In this document: piece after piece, positions 1 through 10,774 of the stretch | How positions within the stretch are numbered: the stretch's first letter is position 1 | Layout: every line of letters starts with the position of its first letter | Translations under genes and position numbers: made by a program | The notes under the pieces: generated by a model | The model's input: the letters and a program-made list of their open reading frames with translations, nothing else | The model's database searches: none | Told to the model about the DNA's origin: nothing | Source: Gemmatimonadota bacterium | GTDB lineage: Bacteria > Gemmatimonadota > Gemmatimonadetes > Gemmatimonadales > Gemmatimonadaceae | Direction: 5' to 3' | Length of the DNA stretch: 10,774 bases | Assembly: GCA_031372565.1 (NCBI GenBank) | Contig: JANMLN010000029.1 | Span: forward strand, 1 to 10,774

Positions 1-51
1 GACCTTGGCCTTGAAGGCGGGGGCGTGATTGCGACGGGGACGACGGGACAT
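1..51 (-). CDS. IS3-family transposase OrfA, N-terminus (continues beyond window start)
   Basis: ATG at 51-49 reads MSRRPRRNHAPAFKAKV, a typical IS3 OrfA HTH start; AAGGAG Shine-Dalgarno at 63-58, 6 nt upstream. Confidence 0.9.
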   Translation of the reverse strand, partial: MSRRPRRNHAPAFKAKV

Positions 52-139
52 GGGGTGCTCCTTGGGGATAGGGCGATGTAACGCCCGGGGAGCCCTGCTG
101 TCTACATAGCCGGCTGTTCAGAAGACCGGAGCCACTTCA
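1..139 (-). mobile_element. IS3-family element, left end (IRL at about 101-139)
   Basis: Minus strand begins 5'-TGAAGTGGCTCCGGTCTTCTGAACAGCCGGCTATGTAGA at 139 (5'-TG terminus typical of IS3), upstream of OrfA; resembles the IR at 293-341. Confidence 0.85.
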
Positions 140-140
140 G

Positions 141-281
141 ACCGTCTCGGAGGCGCGCGCTGGCCTCGGCCGCTATCTCACCTTGTACAACACCCGCCGG
201 CCCCACTCGAGCCTCGCGGATCAGACCCCCGACCAGGCATACTTGACCTCCACCGCGCTGCGGCACGCCGCCGCAGCCTGA
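141..281 (+). pseudogene. IS3-family transposase OrfB C-terminal fragment, interrupted at about 140
   Basis: Frame from 141 reads TVSEARAGLGRYLTLYNTRRPHSSLADQTPDQAYLTSTALRHAAAA*, with the YNxxRPHSSL...TP motif of IS3 integrase cores. Not in the supplied ORF track. Confidence 0.9.
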
Positions 282-292
282 CCGCCCCGCGC

Positions 293-341
293 TCTACATA
301 GCCGAACCCATCTCGCTGTCCGAAAAAGCGCGGCCACTTCT
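293..341 (+). repeat. IS3-family right inverted repeat (IRR) of the interrupted element
   Basis: TCTACATAGCCG...GCTGTCCGAAAAAGCGCGGCCACTTCT just after the OrfB stop; shares TCTACATAGCCG, GCTGT and GCCACTTC with 101-139. Confidence 0.8.
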
Positions 342-358
342 GTGAGCACGAGGTCCAT
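342..358 (-). pseudogene. Possible first codons (MDLVLT) of an IS5/DUF4096 transposase cut by the IS3 end
   Basis: ATG GAC CTC GTG CTC AC abuts the IS3 IRR; LT fits the LTDxQW start of IS5 OrfA, whose QW continuation is seen at 4822. Only 17 nt, so weak. Confidence 0.4.
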
Positions 359-359
359 G

Positions 360-426
360 ACGGGAGTAAACATACCGCCCACTCGTGCAGGACTCTTGCT
401 ATCCACATTTCACCTACGGTCCACTA
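360..426 (-). repeat. 67-bp repeat copy A, starting at the stop codon of the 424-987 gene
   Basis: Ungapped alignment to 1165-1231, 55/67 identical by hand count. Confidence 0.9.
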
Positions 427-987
427 CCAGGTCGCCCGACTCTCGTTGTCGAAATTCGCTCGAACAATCTCGCCTGGCGAGACGGTATGCAGCCCGATGT
501 ACCCTATCGCATAGGTGGGCAGCGCGACCAAGAAACCGACCGAATCCTTCAAGACGAAGGAGTAGGTACCCGCCGGCAGCTGAAACTGGACGAACCCCAC
601 AGAGTCGGACCTCGCGCTGTCGATCGGGAGGGGAGCAGCTGGCATCTGTTCAGCATAGTAGGCGCCGCCAGCAATGCGCGTGACCGCCGACATCGGAAGC
701 GCTGGGTAGACGTAGATGACGCGGCTCACGGGCGTAATGCCTCTGCACGTCCACTCCCACACATTGCCTACGACGCCCGACGTGATGGTCGCACGCCCCC
801 GTTGTTCCACTGGCCGCTGCTCCGTGCCGCACCGCGCAGAGAGAAGCTCGGAGTTGCACGCCGACGTCAGGTTTACGAGCGCAACCAAGGCACCAACCGA
901 CCACCAAGCCATTGGTCTCCCGTGGCCTGAGGGGCTCGATTTCGCTCGTGGGAGTACCGACAGTGTACGGTTTCTCCTCGGAAGCAT
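424..987 (-). CDS. Putative lipoprotein of unknown function (187 aa), possibly carboxypeptidase-regulatory-like beta-sandwich
   Basis: ATG 987 is conserved in the paralogue at 5099; hydrophobic stretch then lipobox-like LTSAC; SDSVGFVQFQLPAGTYSF resembles the DxxGxFxxxLPxGxY motif; indels against the paralogue keep frame. Start uncertain (alternative ATG 912). Confidence 0.7.
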   Translation of the reverse strand: MLPRRNRTLSVLPRAKSSPSGHGRPMAWWSVGALVALVNLTSACNSELLSARCGTEQRPVEQRGRATITSGVVGNVWEWTCRGITPVSRVIYVYPALPMSAVTRIAGGAYYAEQMPAAPLPIDSARSDSVGFVQFQLPAGTYSFVLKDSVGFLVALPTYAIGYIGLHTVSPGEIVRANFDNESRATW

Positions 988-1164
988 GCCAGTCACTCGC
1001 AGAACGGGTTGCACCCGCCCTCCGACGACACCGAGACGGCGAATGCGCCGCGTGCGTTCCCCTGCCAACTGGGGGAAGAGACTGTGGCACGGAGACTGAA
1101 TGAGACCGCCGAAGCGGACAGCGTTCGCGTGACCGAGGGCCTACTGCCGCCTATGCCGACCCAA

Positions 1165-1231
1165 ACGGGAGTACACATACCGCCGACCCTTGCGAGAGTT
1201 GTGCTATCCACATTGCACCTACGAGCCACTA
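1165..1231 (-). repeat. 67-bp repeat copy B, starting at the stop codon of the PQQ-repeat gene
   Basis: TAGTGGCTCGTAGGTGCAATGTGGATAGC...GGCGGTATGTGTACTCCCGT on the minus strand; matches 360-426. Confidence 0.9.
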
Positions 1232-2356
1232 GTCGCACGCGAAGGCATGCACGTTGCGATTGGTCGTCACGAACGCCAGCCCGCGCGCGGTGGCAAAGCC
1301 TGAAGTCCCGTACTCCACTTCGTCGTCGAAGGTACGCCCGAGCAGGCGCCCGGTTCCAAGGTCGAACTTGTTGATCGCCAGGCTATTGCCGAAGAGCGTA
1401 CGACCACAGACGACCTGCTCCGAACTGAAGCTTCCCTGTACCTGCGTCCGCCAGAGCTCACGCCCCGTCTCGAGATCGAGCGCGCGTGCGGTCTCATCGC
1501 CTCCGGTGTAGTACACGCGCCCATCCAGCACCGTGGCGGGCCAACTGGTCCCGACACAGCACGGCAGCCCCTTGGTGCGCCACTGGCGTGCGCCCGTGAA
1601 GCGATCAAATGCCTGTACTCCTCCCACGCCGTAGTCCGACGCGATCAGCCAGCGATCACTGACCGTCGGCGCTCCGAGGAAGTATCCCCCCTCGGAGACT
1701 GGCAGCTCCCTTCGCCAGAGCTCACGCCCATCTGCCGTTTGGAGGGCGATCAGCAGCGCCTGCGTGAAGACCCCATCAGGCGTAAACCGGGTGCCAACGA
1801 CATACGCCGTATCCCCGCTCACCTGCACTCCGGTCAGGCGAACGGCGTTGCTGTCGACGGGATAGGGGCGCGCCCAAGCGAGGGATCCGGTGGCTTCATC
1901 AAAGCGGCGTATCAGGCGACCGCTGGAGACGAAGAGCGATCCGCCCGTCGCGGTCACCGACGAGAAGTTGTCCGGCTCCGTCAACGTGGTGTTCCACAGC
2001 AGTTGTCCGTTTTGTCGATTCAACACGGCCAAACTGCTCCCGCTGGCCACGATGACGTGCGCCGCGTTCATGACGAGCTTGTCGGCATAGCTCGATGCCC
2101 AAGGCGGCGGGAGCGTGGCCGTCCACAACGCACCGCCGTCGCTCGAACGCAACGCCATCACTTGGTCCGAGCGTCGCATGACGACGAGCTGCGCGCTGTC
2201 GGCAACTGGAGTCCCGCGCCAGCCCCCCGATTCAGTCGACAACGATATCGACCACTGCGGCCGCAGACCTGGGTTCGGCTTGGTGGAGTCGTCCATGCAT
2301 GCCGTCACAGGGGCGCACAGTGCGAGCGCGCCCGCGAGGAGTTGACGGGGGCTCAT
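1229..2356 (-). CDS. PQQ-binding-like (BamB-type) beta-propeller lipoprotein, 375 aa
   Basis: Likely start MSPRQLLAG at 2356 overlaps the upstream TGA (ATGA); lipobox VTAC; repeated AxDxxTGxxxW blades (ALRSSDGGALW, AFDRFTGARQW, ALDLETGRELW). Confidence 0.88.
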   Translation of the reverse strand: MSPRQLLAGALALCAPVTACMDDSTKPNPGLRPQWSISLSTESGGWRGTPVADSAQLVVMRRSDQVMALRSSDGGALWTATLPPPWASSYADKLVMNAAHVIVASGSSLAVLNRQNGQLLWNTTLTEPDNFSSVTATGGSLFVSSGRLIRRFDEATGSLAWARPYPVDSNAVRLTGVQVSGDTAYVVGTRFTPDGVFTQALLIALQTADGRELWRRELPVSEGGYFLGAPTVSDRWLIASDYGVGGVQAFDRFTGARQWRTKGLPCCVGTSWPATVLDGRVYYTGGDETARALDLETGRELWRTQVQGSFSSEQVVCGRTLFGNSLAINKFDLGTGRLLGRTFDDEVEYGTSGFATARGLAFVTTNRNVHAFACD

Positions 2357-4401
2357 CCTGACCCCGGACTGAAGTGCATTGCGAATGCGTCCGTTAGATT
2401 GAGCTGAGTCCGCGGATCCACCAGCTCCGCCGCGTGCGAGCTTCCCTCTGGAATCCGAAGCAGCTGGTTGGGCTGACCTCCGGGCCATTCCTGCGACGAT
2501 ACCGGAATGAAGCCGTCGCTGGTTGCACCACCGGAGACGGCCCACTGCCAGAGTCGGTCCATCGCCGCAACACCCGCAACGAAGATCGTGCACGCGTAGG
2601 CGCTCACAGCCAACGGATGCCAGACGACGGCTAGAATGGAGGATACCACGGCACAGCGCACCGCCTTGCCGTAGCTGCTCCCGATGTCCCGCGCTGCCGA
2701 GCTGCCCGATCCAGGGCTCTGGAAGTCCGCGGCGATGCGAAACAACAGCCATTTGTTGGACGCATGATGGATGATCGAGGCGCCGCGAATCGGGGCGGCG
2801 CTGTTGATGCCCTGGATCATGAGGCTGGAGGGCCGAGCATCGCACGTCGCCGCGTACAGCGGACAGCGCGATAACTGAGCATAGCCTCCCGGGTAGCCGA
2901 GTGCGGCAGAAAGCGTTGTTCCGATCCCCGGCAGCACCGCGTAGGTGAAGACGCCGGCAGCCATCAGAAAGGACGGACCTCGCTCGGCGAAGAGCGCACC
3001 CCGATTGGGCGACCCGATGGTGATCGCCCCCCGCATCATGCTGCGATCGCGCTGTGCCGCCAAACGGCCAATGACGCCGCCTTGGCTGTGCCCGACGGCA
3101 ACGTAACGCTTCGTTGCGCTTCCGCCGCTCTGCCGAGTCCGCGCCAGCACACTGTCTGCCTGTACACCGTAGCTTGCCAGACTGTTCGTGGAGATGCCGG
3201 TCAGGTTGCCCGTGACATGTGGCATTTGTGGAGCAACCGTGTTCCACGTGCAGGCGTTGCTCATGATCCCATGGACGAGGATCACATTGCGTTCGCCCTG
3301 CTGCTGCCTCTCCCACGTAGCTTCGCACGGAGTCGGCGTGAGATCACGCACCGGGAACGCGCTCGGCCCTCCCCCGCTCCGCCCGCAGTCGGCCGTTCGA
3401 CTCTCCTTGGACGCGCTGTCCGACATGACCAGCCGCGCGACGCACGGATTGATGGTCAGGTCAGCCGTGCTCGTCGCCACGCGGCGCCCGCGTCGGCGAC
3501 GCGCCCGTTCGTCGGCCTTGGCGCGGTTGAAGTGACTCCGCACCCGCCGGAGACGCGTGGTGCTGCCCGTCTGGATGCGACTGGGTCCTCGCTGTTCAAC
3601 CGAGCGGGTGGACACCTCCCGCAGCCGCCAGTGATCGCCAACAACCTCGTATGTACGATCAAGCGTGACTCGCATTCCCGTTGCACTGGGCGCCACGACG
3701 GACCGTTCGCGGTGCAGGCGACCTCGCGCATCAACAAACTGCCGTTCGCCCGAGTCCGGCGGAGCGCCTCCCACCAATGGGAGGCGTACCATCATGTAGT
3801 CCCCATCGCCGGGAGGGTTAGGTCCGCCGCCACCTCCGCCACCGCTCACCAAGTGGTCAATCGGGATGTCGGCTGTGTTGCCGAGCAGGTTCATCGCGTT
3901 CGAGCTCGGCACACCGTTTTCCGTATGGTGCACCAGCGGTGCACTGAGACCGTCCAGCACGGTGTGGCTCGCATCAATGGATCGCGTGGCGTACACTTGC
4001 TCGTTGGGCGCAAACTCTGAGTCGAGCGGTCCCAACTTGTACGTGTTGATCCTGGTCCGCCCCGCCGCATCGTAGCCCGCTTCAAGGTGGAGCGAGTCAC
4101 GGTCCCCGGGGATTGTGTATTCGTACACGAGATTCCCGGTGAACGGATCACGGATCAACGTGTCACTCGCCACCGTGATGGCGATGTCGAACACCGCCTC
4201 CAGCGCGATGTGCGAGTCGGACTGATCAATCTCGCCATCGCGCACCGTTGCGAGGCTCGATTGATCAACACGAACTACCCCCCTCCCGACTTTCTCGGCG
4301 TCTCCACGCTGCGGTGCACTCGCATCCACGCACGCACACAACGCGACCATCAGCAGCGCGACACCGGAAGCCCCACGGCGCCCCTTTGAGATTGCCAGCA
4401 T
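2353..4401 (-). CDS. Lipoprotein with C-terminal alpha/beta-hydrolase (lipase/PGAP1-like) domain, 682 aa
   Basis: Signal peptide ending LCAC; oxyanion VHG; nucleophile GHSQGG; IGSPNRGA; SDGFIP (Asp); SSHAAE (His); GAGGG RBS about 7 nt upstream. Confidence 0.88.
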   Translation of the reverse strand: MLAISKGRRGASGVALLMVALCACVDASAPQRGDAEKVGRGVVRVDQSSLATVRDGEIDQSDSHIALEAVFDIAITVASDTLIRDPFTGNLVYEYTIPGDRDSLHLEAGYDAAGRTRINTYKLGPLDSEFAPNEQVYATRSIDASHTVLDGLSAPLVHHTENGVPSSNAMNLLGNTADIPIDHLVSGGGGGGGPNPPGDGDYMMVRLPLVGGAPPDSGERQFVDARGRLHRERSVVAPSATGMRVTLDRTYEVVGDHWRLREVSTRSVEQRGPSRIQTGSTTRLRRVRSHFNRAKADERARRRRGRRVATSTADLTINPCVARLVMSDSASKESRTADCGRSGGGPSAFPVRDLTPTPCEATWERQQQGERNVILVHGIMSNACTWNTVAPQMPHVTGNLTGISTNSLASYGVQADSVLARTRQSGGSATKRYVAVGHSQGGVIGRLAAQRDRSMMRGAITIGSPNRGALFAERGPSFLMAAGVFTYAVLPGIGTTLSAALGYPGGYAQLSRCPLYAATCDARPSSLMIQGINSAAPIRGASIIHHASNKWLLFRIAADFQSPGSGSSAARDIGSSYGKAVRCAVVSSILAVVWHPLAVSAYACTIFVAGVAAMDRLWQWAVSGGATSDGFIPVSSQEWPGGQPNQLLRIPEGSSHAAELVDPRTQLNLTDAFAMHFSPGSG

Positions 4402-4466
4402 GAGCGAACCCTCGCCTCACGTGGTGTCTGGTCTAGTCGCATCAGCGGCCGAGACCTCGGCAGTCA

Positions 4467-4490
4467 CACCAATACTTCTTCGTATTGATG
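4467..4490 (-). promoter_or_regulatory. Inverted repeat in the hydrolase 5' leader (operator or RNA hairpin)
   Basis: CATCAATAC-GAAGAA-GTATTGGTG; a second palindrome GCCGAG-AC-CTCGGC lies at 4448-4461. Confidence 0.45.
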
Positions 4491-4500
4491 GATTAACGCA

Positions 4501-4529
4501 ACGGTAAATCCTCTCGATACCATTGTCAA
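4501..4529 (-). promoter_or_regulatory. Sigma70-type promoter for the hydrolase-PQQ operon
   Basis: TTGACA (4529-4524), 17-nt spacer, TACCGT (4506-4501) in a locally AT-rich stretch about 100 nt upstream of ATG 4401. Confidence 0.65.
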
Positions 4530-4822
4530 GTAACTCCACAGGCCACGATCCGAACCACCGTTCCCGTTACTCCAGCGTCGGCCAGTTCGCGGGCCATCGC
4601 TTCGAGCACGCGTTGTAACGCCCCCGACCGGGCCCACAACTGGAAGCGGCGATGACATGTCTGATGCGGCGGAGAGCGCGGCGGCAGGTCGTGCCACGGC
4701 ACGCCGGTCCGCATCACCAAGACGATGCCGTTCACGACGTCGCGCGGGTCGCGCCACGGGCGTCTCTTGGAATCCTTGCAGACCTTCGGCTTGGGCAGCA
4801 GGGGCTGCAAGCGCTGCCACTG
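4526..4822 (-). pseudogene. IS5-family (IS427-like, DUF4096) transposase OrfA remnant
   Basis: QWQRLQPLLPKPK...RPWRDPRDVVNGIVLVMRTGVPWHDLPPRSPPHQTCHRRFQLWARSG; native start missing, no DDE domain follows. Confidence 0.85.
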
Positions 4823-5099
4823 GCGTCATGACTCCGCACGTGGGGAACTGTCCAACCCACTCCCATACATTGCCTACGACGCCCGACGTGATGGTCGCAC
4901 GCCCCCGTTGGTCCACTGGCCGCTGCCCCGAGGTGCCGCACCCTGCAGAAAGAAGCTCGGAGCCCTTGCACGCCGACGCCAGGTGTACGAGCACAAGAAA
5001 AGCACCAACCGACCACCAAGCGATTGGTCTCCCGTGGCCTGAGGGGCTCGATGTCGCGCGTGGGAGTACCGACAGCCTACGGTTCCTCCTCGGAAGCAT
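4818..5099 (-). pseudogene. Truncated paralogue of the 424-987 lipoprotein, fused to the IS5 remnant
   Basis: 4818-5111 aligns with 727-999; lipobox LASAC; similarity stops at ...MTPV where the IS5 QW codons begin. Confidence 0.8.
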
Positions 5100-5109
5100 G
5101 CCAGTCACT

Positions 5110-5119
5110 CGGGCCACTA
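5110..5119 (-). repeat. Short third copy of the repeat terminus at the ybdD stop codon
   Basis: TAGTGGCCCG versus TAGTGGCTCG (1231-1222) and TAGTGGACCG (426-417). Confidence 0.55.
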
Positions 5120-5293
5120 GCAGCACCGCTGCCCGGGCCGGCTGTACTTGTCGCGCATGCGTTCGGCCAGAAAGGCATCGCGCGTGAGCCGCTCGCACGC
5201 CGGATGGTGCGCATGCATGTGCGCGAGATACTCGTCGTAGTCCGGCACGCCGATGATGCGACGCAGCACCGCGAGCGCGCGCGCGATGCTCAC
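5117..5293 (-). CDS. YbdD/YjiX family small protein (DUF466/Sel_put), 58 aa
   Basis: GTG start overlaps the peptidase TGA (GTGA); GVPDYDEYLAHMHAHHP and C-terminal RCC are family signatures; the family is normally linked to cstA. Confidence 0.92.
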   Translation of the reverse strand: MSIARALAVLRRIIGVPDYDEYLAHMHAHHPACERLTRDAFLAERMRDKYSRPGQRCC

Positions 5294-7653
5294 TTGCCCG
5301 CCTTGCTGCCGTTCGGTCCGATCGTCCGCTCGAACAGCTCGAGGATGCGCCGGTACTCGTCGGTCCAGCTCGAGGGTCGCACGAAGCCGTGATCCTCCAC
5401 GGGGTAGGCCGCGAGTTCCCAGTTGATCTTGCCGAGTTCGATGAGACGCTGCGCCAGTCGCGCCGAGTCCTCGAAGTGCACGTTGACGTCGACCATGCCG
5501 TGCGCGATCAGCAGGGGATCTTCCAGCCCGTCGGCGAGGAAGATGGGCGACGAACGCCGGTAGGCGACCGAGTCGTCCTGCGGGAGGTTGAGGATCTGTC
5601 CCGTGTACGGATGGTTGTAATGCGCCCAGTCGGTCACGGGGCGGAGCGCCGCCCCGGCGCCGAACGACTTGGGTGCGGTGAACAGCGCCATCAGCGTGAT
5701 GAAGCCGCCGTAACTCCCACCGTACAATCCGATCCGTTCCGGCGGCACCCGGTAGGTGGCGGTGAGCCAGCGCGACGCGTCCACCTGGTCCTGCAGGTCG
5801 CGCCCACCCATCCAGCGGTAGATGGCGGTGCGCCAGTCCCGGCCATACCCCGCGCTCGCACGATAGTCGAGATCGAGCACGACGTACCCCTTCGACGCGA
5901 GCAGGTGATTGAACATGTACTCGCGGCTGTAGCTCGACCAATACCGGTGCACGTTGTGCATGTAGCCGGCGCCATGCACGAAGATCACGGCGGCGCCGTT
6001 GGGCGTGGCGCCCACATCCTCGGGACGATAGATCCGCGCCGGCACCTTGGCGCCGTCGCTCGCCGGGATCTCGATGATGCCCGGATCCAGCCATCCGTGT
6101 GCGAGCCACTCGGCCGTGGGCGATGTCGTGAGCTGCGCGGCAGGCGCCAGCTTGCACTTGGCGAGCGGCGGACAGACGCTCTGCACGAACAGTTCGGGCG
6201 GCCGGTTGGAGGACGAGAACACGTCGGCGAACCGCGTCTCGTCGGGACTCATCACCCCCGCGTGCGAGCCGACGCCCACCGTGAGCCGTTCACGCGCGCC
6301 GCCCGCGACCGCCATGCGATACCAGTGGCGCTCGTACGGCGAGCCCTCGCTCGTGTGCATCAGGAAGAAGCGCTTGTCCGGCGTGAGCTGCACGGTGTTC
6401 ACTTCGAATGCGCCGTCGGTGAGGGCGCGGCGATCGTTGCCGTCTGCGCCGACGGACCAGAGCTGCGCGTAGCCCGTGGCTTCGCTCACGAACCAGGCGC
6501 GCGTCCCGCCCGCGTACCAGCCGCCGCAGCCGCTGCACGGGCCTCCCACCCACGCGCTGTCCCGCAATTGGTCGAGCACGGCGGTGGTGCCGTTCACGTC
6601 CACGCGCGTGAGCAGACGGCGTTCGTAGTCGCGGCTCGTCGCGGTGACGAGCGCGCTCGAGCCCGTCTCGTTCCATCCGAGCGAGGTGACGAATGCCGGC
6701 GGCGTCGTGTCGCCACCCAGCACGGTGAGCCACTTCACGGTGCCGACAGGCAGCGTGATGAGTCCGACGCGCGCGACGGACTGGGCATCGCCCACCTTGG
6801 TGCGCGTGTCGATCTCTTCGGTGTAGCCCGAGCCCGTGACGTAGTTGGGCACCTGCGCCGACCGTGCGTCGCCCTGCGCGCGCGACGTCACGATGATGGC
6901 CGCGGTACCTGCTGGGCTCACGTCCAGCTGCGTGACGCGCTCACGCGATTGCAGCCAGACCGTGGCGGGGAGCAACGCCTCCACGCGCTGGCGTTCCGCC
7001 TTGCTGGTCGAATCGGCACGATCCTTGTCGCGAATCGCCTGCAGCAGCAGGCGCTGGTCCTTCTCGAGCGCCATGCGCTGGGTGGACCGCTTGTTGCTGG
7101 TGTCGGGCGCGGGGCCGGTGCGGACGTCGGTCAGTTGCACGACGCTCCCCGAACCGATGTCGATCGACCAGGCGTTCCCCTCGCGCGTGTAGTACACGCG
7201 CGCGCCATCCGCGCTCCACGCCGGGTTGCTCTCGAAGAGCAGTGTGCGCGACAGGCGACGGGCGACGCCACGCTTCGTGTCCACGAGGTAGAGGTCGCCG
7301 CGGAAGTCGACCACGCGCAGCTTCCGGTCTGGCGAGAGCGGGCCGTCGGTGATCAGCGGCCCCGCCGTGTCCATGTGCACCTCGCTCATGCGCTCGGGCG
7401 TCGCGCCAGCCCTCGCCTTCACGCGAAAGGCACCCAGTGGTTCACGCCAGTCGGCGCCGGGTGGGTTCCACTGGAAGTAGATCCACTCGCCGTCTGCGGT
7501 CCATCGCACGCGTTGCGGCTCGCGGCCGTAGAGCTCGGGACCGCGCATGATGTTGGCAACCGACAGGTCGAAGCGCGGCTGCGTTTGGGCGTCATGGGCC
7601 GCGCACGCCAGGAGCAGCGCGGCGAGGAAAATGCGAGCGAAGGTGCGTGACAT
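5290..7653 (-). CDS. S9 family (prolyl oligopeptidase / DPP-IV-like) serine peptidase, exported, 787 aa
   Basis: Signal peptide; N-terminal propeller repeats (NPAWSADG, LSPDRK); VHGAG, DYRASAGYG, GGSYGG (Ser), DVNV (Asp), EDHGF (His). Confidence 0.95.
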   Translation of the reverse strand: MSRTFARIFLAALLLACAAHDAQTQPRFDLSVANIMRGPELYGREPQRVRWTADGEWIYFQWNPPGADWREPLGAFRVKARAGATPERMSEVHMDTAGPLITDGPLSPDRKLRVVDFRGDLYLVDTKRGVARRLSRTLLFESNPAWSADGARVYYTREGNAWSIDIGSGSVVQLTDVRTGPAPDTSNKRSTQRMALEKDQRLLLQAIRDKDRADSTSKAERQRVEALLPATVWLQSRERVTQLDVSPAGTAAIIVTSRAQGDARSAQVPNYVTGSGYTEEIDTRTKVGDAQSVARVGLITLPVGTVKWLTVLGGDTTPPAFVTSLGWNETGSSALVTATSRDYERRLLTRVDVNGTTAVLDQLRDSAWVGGPCSGCGGWYAGGTRAWFVSEATGYAQLWSVGADGNDRRALTDGAFEVNTVQLTPDKRFFLMHTSEGSPYERHWYRMAVAGGARERLTVGVGSHAGVMSPDETRFADVFSSSNRPPELFVQSVCPPLAKCKLAPAAQLTTSPTAEWLAHGWLDPGIIEIPASDGAKVPARIYRPEDVGATPNGAAVIFVHGAGYMHNVHRYWSSYSREYMFNHLLASKGYVVLDLDYRASAGYGRDWRTAIYRWMGGRDLQDQVDASRWLTATYRVPPERIGLYGGSYGGFITLMALFTAPKSFGAGAALRPVTDWAHYNHPYTGQILNLPQDDSVAYRRSSPIFLADGLEDPLLIAHGMVDVNVHFEDSARLAQRLIELGKINWELAAYPVEDHGFVRPSSWTDEYRRILELFERTIGPNGSKAGK

Positions 7654-7665
7654 CAGGATGTCCGG

Positions 7666-9738
7666 TTAGTCGCCGGCCGCAAAGGCCGTGCGCGGCTGGA
7701 ACGGCACTTCGGAACTCACCGCGGGCTTGCCGCGGCCAAGCACCGCCCACCACTCCCACGCCGACGCGAGCAGGATCACGATCACGGAGAGGATGAAGAA
7801 GCCGGCCACGGCCGCATCCACGCGGTCATTGGCGATCACCCGCGCGGCATCGGCGGCCGTCTTGAGGCCGGCCGGCAACGTGCCCGCGTCCACCTTCGCC
7901 TGTACCATGGCGGCGTGCGACAGGAAGCCGAGCTTCGGATCGTCCGACAGCAGCTTGGTGAAGCCCGCCGTCATCGTCACGATCGTGAGCCAGCACATCG
8001 GGATGAGCGTGACGAACGCGTACTTCGCCTTCCCCATCTTGATGATGATCGTGGTCCCGACGCAGAGCGCGACGGTGGCGAGCAGCTGGTTGGCGATGCC
8101 GAACAGCGGCCACAGCGAATTGATGCCGCCGAGCGGATCGATCACTCCCTGATAGAGGAAATATCCCCACGCGCCGACGACCATCGCGCTCGTGAGCAGC
8201 ACGGCCGGATACCACGAGACACGGCCGAGCGGCGCCCACACGTGCTTGAGCAGGTCCTGCAGCATGAACCGCCCCACGCGCGTGCCGGCGTCGAGCGTGG
8301 TGAGGATGAACAGCGCCTCGAACATGATCGCGAAGTGGTACCAGAGCGCCATCGCGCTGGTGCCACCCAGGGCGCGCGAGAAGAGGTGCGCCATGCCGAC
8401 CGCAAGGGATGGCGCGCCACCCGTACGCGAGAGGATGCTCGTCTCACCGACGTTCTTGGCCAGCGCGTCCAGCTCGGCCGGGTTGATCGTGAACCCCCAC
8501 TGCTGAATGGCCGCTGCCGCGCTCTCGGTCGTGGTGCCGAGCAGCCCCGCAGGCGCGTTGATGGCGAAGTAGGTGCCGGGCGACAGCACGCAGGCGGCGA
8601 TCAGCGCCATGATCGCGACCCCCGACTCCATGAGCATCGCGCCGTAGCCGACCATGCGCGCGTCGGTCTCGCGCTCGAGCAGCTTCGGGGTCGTGCCGGA
8701 CGAGACGAGCGCGTGAAAGCCCGAGATCGCGCCGCAGGCAATCGTGATGAACACGAACGGGAACAGCTTGCCGGCGAACACCGGACCGCTGCCGTCGACG
8801 AAGCGCGTCACCGCCGGCATCTCGAGCGGCGGCAGCACCACGAGAATGCCGATCGCGAGCGCCACCACCACGCCGATCTTCACGAACGCGCTCAGGTAAT
8901 CACGCGGCGCGAGCAGCAACCACACGGGCAACACGGCGGCCACGAAGCCGTAGCCGATGACCATCAACGCGATGCTCGGCCCGTCGAAGGTGAAGATCGG
9001 CGCGAGGGCCGGATTCTCCGCGACCCAGCGCCCGGCGTACAGCGCGACCACCAGCAACACGAGCCCCATCGCACTCGCTTCGAGGACGCGATGCGGTCGG
9101 ATCCAGCGCAGGTACACCCCCATGAACAGCGCGATGGGAATCGTCAGGCCGATCGTGACGATCCCCCACGGACTCGCCTTGAGCGCGTTGACGACCACCA
9201 GCGCCAGCACCGCGATCAGGATCACCATGATGCCGATCACGGCCACGAGCGCCGTGTAGCCGGCCACCGTGCCGATCTCCTCCTTCGCCATGGCGCCGAG
9301 CGTCTTGCCGTCGCGCCGCAGCGACGAGCAGAGAATCACGCAGTCCTGCACGGCGCCGCCCAGCGCCACGCCGATGATGATCCAGAGCGCACCCGGCAGG
9401 TAGCCGAATTGGGCCGCGAGGGTCGGGCCGACCAGTGGGCCCGGGCCCGCGATCGCGGCAAAGTGGTGGCCAAAGACGATCCACCGGTTCGTCGGCACGT
9501 AGTCGCGCCCATCGTTGAGCCGTTCGGCGGGGGTCGCACGGTTGGCGTCCAGCGCGAAGATCTTGGTCGCGATGATCTTCGAATAGAAGCGATAGGCCAC
9601 CGCGTACGAACACATGGCGGCAACCAGGAGCCAGGCGGCGTTGATCGGTTCGCCGCGCCTGAGGGCGACCACCCCCAGCGCGCCGGCGCCCACGAGCGCG
9701 ATGATGGTCCAGGTCAGGATCGAGCGGATGCGGGCCAT
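7666..9738 (-). CDS. cstA: Carbon starvation protein A (CstA family transporter), 690 aa
   Basis: [65 protein letters not shown] and [13 protein letters not shown] motifs; many TM segments. ATG 9738 preferred over 9810. Confidence 0.97.
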
Positions 9739-9842
9739 GCGGGTCCGGAAGCCGGGGAAGAGGATCGCGCGCGGGAAAGCTGCTGCGCGTCGCCCACCGA
9801 GGTCAACCAACGGGGTGCTCGTCGACGCCCCGCTCCGTCTGA

Positions 9843-10345: not shown

Positions 10346-10374
10346 TTGCGCCACCGTCTCACGCGTGATACGAT
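10346..10374 (+). promoter_or_regulatory. vapBC promoter with overlapping palindromic operator
   Basis: TTGCGC (10346-10351), 17 nt, extended -10 TGnTACGAT (10366-10374); palindrome CGTCTCACGCGTGATACG at 10355-10372 with one mismatched pair. Confidence 0.7.
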
Positions 10375-10379
10375 CGGGT

Positions 10380-10628
10380 ATGGATAACATCTCCGTTCGT
10401 GAACTCCGCAACAACGGCGGCCGCGTCCTGCAGCGTGTCGCTGGCGGCGAGACGCTGACGGTCACGATGGATGGTCACCCCATCGCGGAACTCCGCCCGA
10501 TTCCGGGGCAGGGGCTCACCGCGGCCACGTTGCTGCAGCGGTGGCGCCGCTTGCCGCCTGTCGACGCGCAGCAGCTTCGGGCCGACCTGGATCGCGTGCT
10601 GGATGCGTCGCCGTGGTCCGTCGGGTGA
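10380..10628 (+). CDS. Phd/YefM (prevent-host-death) family antitoxin, VapB-type, 82 aa
   Basis: ISVRELRNNGGRVLQRVAGGETLTVTMDGHPIAELRP is a Phd-fold signature; GTGA overlap with the PIN toxin. Confidence 0.9.
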   Translation: MDNISVRELRNNGGRVLQRVAGGETLTVTMDGHPIAELRPIPGQGLTAATLLQRWRRLPPVDAQQLRADLDRVLDASPWSVG

Positions 10629-10774
10629 GGCATGCCCGGGGCATCCTCGACACGAGCACGGTCATCATGCTCGGTCGACTGGACGATCCCGCGGTGCTCC
10701 CCGATGAACCGTTGATCACGGCGATCACGCTCGCCGAGCTCACCGTCGGGCCCTTGGTCGCCACATCGGATCAG
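10625..10774 (+). CDS. vapC: PIN-domain VapC toxin, N-terminal 50 codons (runs off window)
   Basis: GTG start reads MRHARGILDTSTVIMLGRLDDPAVLPDEPLITAITLAELTVGPL, with PIN motifs LDTS and TLAEL. Not in the supplied ORF track. Confidence 0.9.
   Translation, partial: MRHARGILDTSTVIMLGRLDDPAVLPDEPLITAITLAELTVGPLVATSDQ

Follow-up and report, generated by a model that had tools for sequence, protein, structure and literature searches.

Insertion sequences (ISs) of the IS630 family, such as IS630 of Shigella sonnei and ISY100 of Synechocystis, belong to the Tc1/mariner superfamily. IS630 is listed with a 2-bp duplication and the target CTAG in Table 1 of PMC2577343, and the reference lists of PMC2170065 and PMC2577343 carry the wording ‘TA in the 5′-CTAG-3′ sequence’ for IS630 (Tenzen & Ohtsubo, 1991). 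Here, a stretch of 10,774 nt was analysed, which is the entire contig C127 (hereafter the window) of the draft Gemmatimonadota genome G000 (4.44 Mb, 201 contigs, 68.4% GC) and in which three unrelated genes end in a TAG stop codon followed directly by TGGNNCG. We conclude, with a probability of roughly 0.9, that this TAG/TGGNNCG repeat is the outer end of an IS630-family IS of about 1.1 kb, which carries one DDE transposase gene and resides in CTAG, together with the flanking target TA. With IS630 and ISY100 the element shares the single DDE transposase with N-terminal helix-turn-helix (HTH) domains (DDE_3, HTH_23/28/29/32; NF033545), the length of about 1.1 kb, the terminal inverted repeats, the flanking TA inside CTAG and the decay to short non-autonomous derivatives. 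It differs in that the present subgroup occurs in Gemmatimonadota genomes and metagenomes and that the TAG stop of the transposase is derived from the target in 10 of 14 relatives, while the window itself contains dead fragments only. Within the known IS630 family, the element appears to be a new or unnamed member.

The repeat behind three stop codons

The three genes and the repeat copies behind them, labelled T1–T3, are located as follows:

5305..5117, minus strand: ybdD-like gene (Sel_put; Pfam PF04328, 1.4e-18)
2356..1229, minus strand: PQQ_2/BamB-like beta-propeller gene, 375 aa (Pfam PF13360, 1e-26)
912..424, minus strand: lipoprotein-like gene, 162 aa, signal peptide ending in LTSAC, no Pfam match
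5110..5119, minus strand: T1, TA(G) of the ybdD stop plus GTGGCCCG; 8 nt of an IS630 left end or partly native flank
1165..1231, minus strand: T2 (67b), lone 67-nt IS630 left end, inserted where the PQQ gene natively stops (C-TAG)
343..426, minus strand: T3 (67a), IS630 left end; target TA at 426..425, 67-mer (inverted repeat and leader) at 426..360, ATG at 358..356

Read on the minus strand, the stop codon contexts were CTGG TAG TGGACCG for the lipoprotein gene (stop at 426..424), CGAC TAG TGGCTCG for the PQQ/BamB-like gene (1231..1229) and CTGC TAG TGGCCCG for ybdD (5119..5117). This agreed with the initial annotation, which had described three unlike genes ending in TAG plus TGGNNCG, two of them (PQQ and ybdD) at CTAG and the third (lipoprotein) at GTAG. 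The 67-bp ungapped repeat with centrally clustered mismatches was likewise reproduced: 360–426 and 1165–1231 are identical at 55 of 67 positions, 7–8 of the 12 mismatches fall inside a central 20-nt window, and the similarity is far above chance (E = 6.9e-13 when the complete 4.44-Mb genome is searched with blastn). The ybdD site, TA-GTGGCCCG-AGTGA, has only about 8–10 nt (TAG plus about 7 nt) in common with the 67-mer, because a 255-nt repeat starts 5 nt after the ybdD stop. Neither blastn with word size 7 nor nhmmer --max detected further 67-mer copies in the genome, and when 8.87 million positions on both strands were compared with the first 29 nt of T3, at least 22 matches were obtained only at T2, T3 and T4, the latter being an inverted copy on contig C112 that is described below.

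Since the repeat lies directly behind stop codons and its G+C content is 52–55% versus 68% for the genome, it might be taken for a 3′-untranslated region element, a terminator or a small RNA common to the three genes. This is scarcely conceivable: both 67-mers folded on either strand (4/4) no better than shuffled sequences (z = +0.52 to +1.61), the Rfam search of the whole window gave no match at E up to 1 and no tRNA was found, and the DNA of 340–1260 was not found in 40 relatives.

The identity of the repeat became apparent from its full-length relatives. A degenerate 29-nt pattern built from the three copies was searched in a collection of 185,579 species genomes and in metagenomes. Only one record was retrieved from the genome collection, a contig of a Gemmatimonadetes metagenome-assembled genome (L015), where positions 1–1131 comprise a complete element of about 1.12 kb extending from CTAG-TGGCCCGTAGGTGAAATG (CTAG-TGGCCCG...) to CACCTACGATCCA-CTAG (...CGATCCA-CTAG). 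It has one open reading frame (ORF) of 352 aa, which matched DDE_3 (4.9e-24), several HTH families and NF033545, ‘IS630 family transposase’, with 242.7 bits (cut-off 100). The metagenome scan yielded six loci with five distinct left flanks, and complete copies of 1126 nt were present in two of them. Both ends of L015 and of L049 align from TAGTGG on, and terminal inverted repeats beginning with GTGG(N)(Y)CG are present at both ends. In the phylum genomes, elements with both ends visible measured 1085–1126 nt, and transposases with E ≤ 1e-40 to that of L015 occurred in 58 of 401 sampled genomes, a tally that includes the unpublished genomes G266 and G012, which are used for no other claim. Mobility of these relatives is indicated by the five distinct metagenome left flanks and by three equal-score matches in each of G026 and G275. 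L049 and L051 have the IS copy and the left flank in common, while their right flanks are unlike (TAGTCCCTC vs TAGGAGTGG), which suggests rearrangement or population variation.

In the window, 426..345 corresponds to nt 5–86 of the L015 element (83% over 83 nt) and 1235..1168 to nt 1–68 (81% over 68 nt); T3 is also 82.8% identical to L049 over 87 nt. T3 continues 17 nt beyond the 67-mer (359..343) into a truncated transposase start, where 358..341 (ATG GAC CTC GTG CTC AC) retains codons 1–6 and reads MDLVLT, compared with MDLVLS in L015, until it is cut at 342/343 by an IS3-family element (IS-B, rve_3). Being continuous with the transposase gene and matching full-length relatives, the 67-mer comprises the left inverted repeat of an IS630-family IS and the leader that reaches to the transposase ATG. 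The view that the shared sequence does not reflect coding homology and is the terminus of a mobile element targeting TA/CTAG is thus borne out, the 67-mer being the terminal region, more precisely the left end, of such an element.

Two other origins of the repeat were considered at this point. The first is purely local segmental duplication of intergenic DNA without any mobile origin. The two 67-mers are found within 1 kb of each other on the same contig, and a larger local duplicate, R2, does exist nearby:

4857..5111, minus strand: R2b, 90.6% identical to R2a; a duplicate comprising the terminal 7 nt of an S8 peptidase gene with its stop, the leader between the genes and codons 1–54 of the lipoprotein gene
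751..999, minus strand: R2a, its partner (blastn), the 5′ part of the intact lipoprotein gene and the leader

Nevertheless, this origin is very improbable for the 67-mer, which forms the end of complete IS copies with unrelated flanks in other genomes and metagenomes, and the homology of the two 67-mers ends exactly at TA on one side. The second is an integron-like system, in which a site-specific recombinase would stack cassettes behind stop codons at a recombination site with TAGTGGNNCG as its core. Integron arrays (IntI, attI, attC) are superficially the same, as a related site in direct orientation stands behind each of several unrelated genes, and the three direct copies behind three unrelated genes, with conserved 67-mer ends and a variable centre, could be seen in this light; the initial annotation had indeed proposed a unit resembling an integron array, docking at stop codons and arranging its cargo head to tail. 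However, the 67-mer runs into an IS630 transposase gene both in the window (MDLVLT) and in the full-length relatives, it forms no hairpin (z = +0.5 to +1.6) and has no Rfam match, and no IntI tyrosine recombinase or other recombinase was found by Pfam among the 10 window ORFs scanned. Whereas integrons have attC folds, an integrase and cassette units of crossover type, here there is no attC-like fold, no integrase in the window and no such units, and the sites are transposon termini. The genome holds no further copies, and the fourth one is inverted, as expected of a transposon end. An integron-like system is therefore highly improbable: the genome holds only these copies, the 67-mer is a terminus of an already known type of IS from a catalogued family (NF033545, 242.7 bits), and the look of a head-to-tail cargo array is produced by truncated left ends and a duplicated gene fragment.

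CTAG target sites and gene ends

The flanks of related copies were analysed at 13 loci, namely L015 and 12 of 30 phylum loci with matches at least 51% identical to the L015 transposase; L027 (an unpublished genome) and L029–L045 were left out. CTAG was present at all 11 visible left ends and all 10 visible right ends in the phylum genomes, the left end being missing in L018 and L026 and the right end in L015, L017 and L022. It also flanked the L015 element on both sides and occurred at the flanks of all six metagenome loci. In the genome of the window, CTAG was found at two of the window sites and at the site on C112, and GTAG at the remaining window site.

CTAG is scarce in G000, where 837 sites were counted versus 12,949 expected from base composition (about 15-fold under-represented), and TA is also under-represented, by 2.5-fold (43,662 vs 110,616). 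At least 299 of the 837 CTAG sites (36%) lie at putative gene ends according to a strict heuristic based on open frames and on G+C content at third codon positions (GC3); this is a lower bound, because the heuristic fails on the three island genes of the window itself. A coding-like frame ended at 3 of the 11 left flanks in the genomes (L017, L024, and L028), and gene ends were seen at 0–2 of the 10 right flanks, at 1–2 of the 5 distinct metagenome left flanks and at neither of the two metagenome right flanks. Altogether, 4–7 of 28 flanks of the related copies are at gene ends, which is not above the CTAG background of at least 36% and contradicts the proposed preference for stop codons. As IS630 targets the TA in CTAG and many of the few CTAGs in this 68% GC genome are C+TAG stops, IS ends are often found at TAG stops. 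The IS terminus begins with G, so the TAG stop is restored after insertion (TA+G), and such insertions are therefore harmless and persist. There is no dedicated stop-codon docking; the anchoring at stop codons is a by-product of the target, the terminus, and the scarcity of CTAG.

That the upstream gene is left intact, as had been noted initially, was confirmed: besides the restoration of TAG by the terminal G, the stop of the PQQ gene proved to be native, since its C-terminus is full length and the three tandem paralogues on contig C42 and the homologue in the same-genus genome G005 terminate at the same residue, the G005 homologue with GAC TAG and without any IS.

At the right end of the element, the transposase frame of 10 of 14 copies (L015, L016–L020, L025, L028, L049, and L051) lacks an internal stop, and the stop codon of the gene consists of the flanking target TA and the next base (CCAC/TAG), while in the other four (L021, L023, L024, and L026) an own TGA or TAA is located a few codons earlier. 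Among the papers listed on IS630 transposase, stop codons and target site duplication, none concerned a stop supplied by the target, as judged from titles and opening parts of abstracts.

A fourth copy and the empty ybdD site

The initial annotation had suggested looking for empty ybdD alleles and for a matching inverted right end, and both were found. A DNA search with 5117–6400 gave matches in all five same-genus genomes; ybdD was included in four of them and was also present on a separate contig of G001. In four of the five (L004, L007, L008, and L011), ybdD is followed within 7–70 nt by a convergent gene, while L005 differs. In G000, this convergent neighbour is located at the end of contig C112, where the sequence, read in the direction of ybdD, is ...CATACGGACCA-CTAG-TGGCGAC-TCA. 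An inverted copy of the TAGTGGNCCGTA motif, T4, starts at C112:25891, exactly at the synteny breakpoint, and abuts the convergent gene; it matches T3 at 22 of 29 positions. Excision of the DNA between both CTAGs would yield TGCTGC-TAG-TGGCGAC-TCA, that is, the 7-nt spacing of ybdD and its neighbour seen in L004 and L011.

T4 was identified by means of the full-length relatives, the profile made of T2 and T3 being too weak. Positions 25964..25890 of C112 correspond to nt 1057–1131 of the L015 element (80%) and 26090..26009 to nt 118–199 (73%), and aa 16–63 and 327–352 of the L015 transposase were placed on C112 by tblastn. It is this tblastn comparison that identifies a 67-aa reading frame on C112, for which Pfam gave no match. 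The IS3-type end that meets T3 at 342/343 also closes C112, at 26092–26232, with 94% identity. Taken together, T3 and T4 appear to represent opposite ends of a single IS630 copy that has undergone internal deletion, amounts to about 300 nt and is interrupted by IS3-type insertions. A target duplication of 8 bp (CTAGTGGC) made by another transposon was also considered for this region and was discarded, as the right junction is already a canonical IS630 end (CCAC-TA) to which it adds nothing.

The remnants resemble MITEs (miniature transposable elements with inverted repeats) and solo ends of IS630/Tc1-mariner elements in that the T3...T4 copy keeps both ends within about 300 nt in total and that T2 is a lone 67-nt end. 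Unlike MITEs, T3...T4 is a single copy and not an amplified family, and it has been further split by the IS3-type insertions.

The 8 nt following the ybdD stop (T1) may be a further IS630 stump. GTGGCCCG equals the first 8 nt of the right-end terminus of L015, while the native flank rebuilt from C112 is TAGTGGCGAC, and only CCG separates an IS origin of T1 from the native flank. Judged from the sequence, the ybdD site could have arisen from a unit of the 67b type if the DNA between ...GTGGCYCG and ...CTGCG/AGTGA was deleted with CG microhomology.

Several observations weigh against the IS630 interpretation of these remnants. The genome has no intact copy of the element, and tblastn returned nothing beyond the C112 fragments and an IS630-type gene of 37% identity on contig C9. 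The lipoprotein site is GTAG, not CTAG, and T1 is ambiguous, as it has 8 nt only, five of which also match the native flank GTGGCGAC. With the profile built from T2 and T3 only, T4 had an E value of 52 genome-wide. The join of the left end of the window to C112 is unassembled and deduced, with IS nt 90–117 (about 28 nt) missing, and both junctions show the same IS3-type end, which requires two inverted IS3 copies. Finally, divergence is different for T2/T3 (82%) and R2a/R2b (90.6%), giving no single order of events.

Composition and history of the islet

The remaining features of the window are the following:

9810..7666, minus strand: CstA
7653..5290, minus strand: S9 peptidase
4526..4856, minus strand: N-terminal fragment of an IS4/IS5-family transposase (DUF4096; Pfam PF13340, 1.6e-20), without the DDE part
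4401..2353, minus strand: alpha/beta-hydrolase-like gene, 682 aa, Pfam matches all under curated cut-offs
993..1164, minus strand: 3′ end (~59 codons and the TGA) left over from an S8 peptidase paralogue (BLASTP)
142..342, plus strand: right end of IS-B, IS3-family; integrase C-terminus to 281, terminus at 342 (rve_3, 1.7e-07)
1..141, minus strand: left end of IS-A, a second IS3-type element nested in IS-B; the contig ends inside IS-A

The segment between T3 and ybdD is distinct in composition. GC3 over the last 300 nt was 0.76 for the lipoprotein gene, 0.78 for the PQQ gene and 0.69 for the hydrolase gene versus 0.90 for S9 and 0.91 for CstA, and the G+C content of windows lying wholly left of about 5200 was 0.60–0.67, while it was mostly 0.66–0.71 from about 5200 to about 9800. 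The S9 peptidase gene sits between cstA and ybdD, the ybdD start lying 16 nt before the S9 stop (overlap at 5290–5305), and the S9–ybdD DNA is 73–83% conserved in all five same-genus genomes. Further right, 10365–10774 contains a weak Phd/YefM-type antitoxin ORF (25 bits; cut-off 29.8) followed by an ORF running off the contig, which may form a toxin–antitoxin pair.

Within the segment, the hydrolase has a paralogue on C42 with only 44% identity and a 42% homologue in one of the five same-genus genomes. On C42:12881–18588 (L055) the 44% paralogue is followed by the three tandem PQQ/BamB-like paralogues, each ending in FNAFACN-TGA, and the hydrolase + PQQ pair is a module recurring in G000 and in G005. 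A search of 100 family genomes gave no match to the lipoprotein. The S8 remnant shares 49% identity over 59 aa (BLASTP E = 3e-15) with the C-terminus of a Peptidase_S8 protein encoded on contig C4, where an intact Peptidase_S8 gene is directly followed by a 35% lipoprotein paralogue (C4:56197–58685, L014), a pair that looks like a two-gene unit. Because the S8 gene precedes the lipoprotein paralogue there, the ancestral operon was S8–lipoprotein. The inner side of T2 is joined to the S8 remnant, the IS homology stopping at 1165 and the S8 homology beginning at about 1172, and a deletion joined the IS630 left end to the 3′ part of this operon. An S8 coding remnant was also tried as the source of the 67-mer itself and was rejected: an 81-codon frame is open across it, but the BLASTP homology begins only at residue 23, where the 67-mer has its inner edge, and 67a has a stop in frame.

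The R2a/R2b repeat spans 255 aligned columns with 90.6% identity and starts 5 nt after the ybdD stop. ATC stands at the start codon position (5024..5022) of R2b, which is truncated at 4857 by the DUF4096 fragment (4526–4856), of which blastn of genome G000 returned only itself and no second copy. At the opposite edge of the segment, the IS-B end recurred with 94% identity at the termini of contigs C112, C113, C114, and C125, and IS-A with 99–100% identity at those of C156, C16, and C160 (blastn); an apparent orfA start of IS-A was recognized by eye in the sequence at 51..49. IS-B is interrupted at 141 by IS-A, and the contig-end matches are 139–141 nt long, which fits assembly breaks at repeats of k = 141; the name of the L015 record also carries k141.

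The T3 copy inserted at the TA of the lipoprotein stop, underwent internal deletion and was split by IS3-family insertions; T2 is what remains of a left end that sits on the native CTAG stop of the PQQ gene. From these data a history can be proposed. The C112 piece abutting the gene that is convergent to ybdD in relatives would be the distal portion of the T3 copy and contain its right inverted repeat, T4, so that 343–5116 would constitute accessory DNA within one former CTAG site between ybdD and its neighbour. To build the islet, IS630 elements would have inserted at TA/CTAG and their copies recombined; deletions and, later, insertions of IS5 and IS3 type would have contributed as well.

Alternatively, everything between T1 and T4 (the hydrolase, PQQ, S8 remnant, lipoprotein, and inner IS ends) could have arrived in a single event, as the cargo of one IS630 composite that entered the ybdD CTAG and later decayed. 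Both flanks of the block belong to one TA/CTAG site and adjoin each other in relatives, the ends of the block, TA-GTGGCCCG and CGGACCAC-TA, are inverted IS630 termini, its genes have a GC3 of 0.69–0.78 versus 0.90–0.91 in S9 and CstA, and the title of Tenzen and Ohtsubo (1991) concerns an IS630-associated composite transposon. The outer left end is, however, an ambiguous stretch of 8 nt only, and a TA duplication at a regenerated CTAG does not reveal whether one or several events took place. No other occurrence of the block was found (340–1260 in 0 of 40 relatives), the metagenome IS copies matching the window in IS sequence only, and the 5′ duplicate of the lipoprotein gene and the IS5 fragment demand extra events regardless. 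Considering both sides, a single arrival is unlikely. The segment 343–5116 is an ordinary, decayed, IS-rich accessory islet, formed either by a one-step composite or by stepwise insertions at regenerated CTAG.

A more far-reaching scenario is doubtful and is put forward as speculation. In high-GC Gemmatimonadota starved of CTAG, this IS630 subgroup might use C-TAG stops as self-renewing safe harbours, its terminal G renewing the stop of the host gene and its transposase borrowing TA+G as a stop, and repeated hits at regenerated CTAG together with recombination might build cargo blocks, the hydrolase/PQQ/lipoprotein block of about 5 kb having moved as one unit between T1 and T4.

The finding offers no new mechanism. 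For annotation, 343–5116 should be marked as an accessory, IS-scarred islet; the finding also explains the position of the contig end and would link contig C127 to C112. More generally, a cassette-like pattern can come from ordinary ISs, as a palindromic CTAG target, a terminus beginning with G and a CTAG-poor genome put IS ends behind intact genes.

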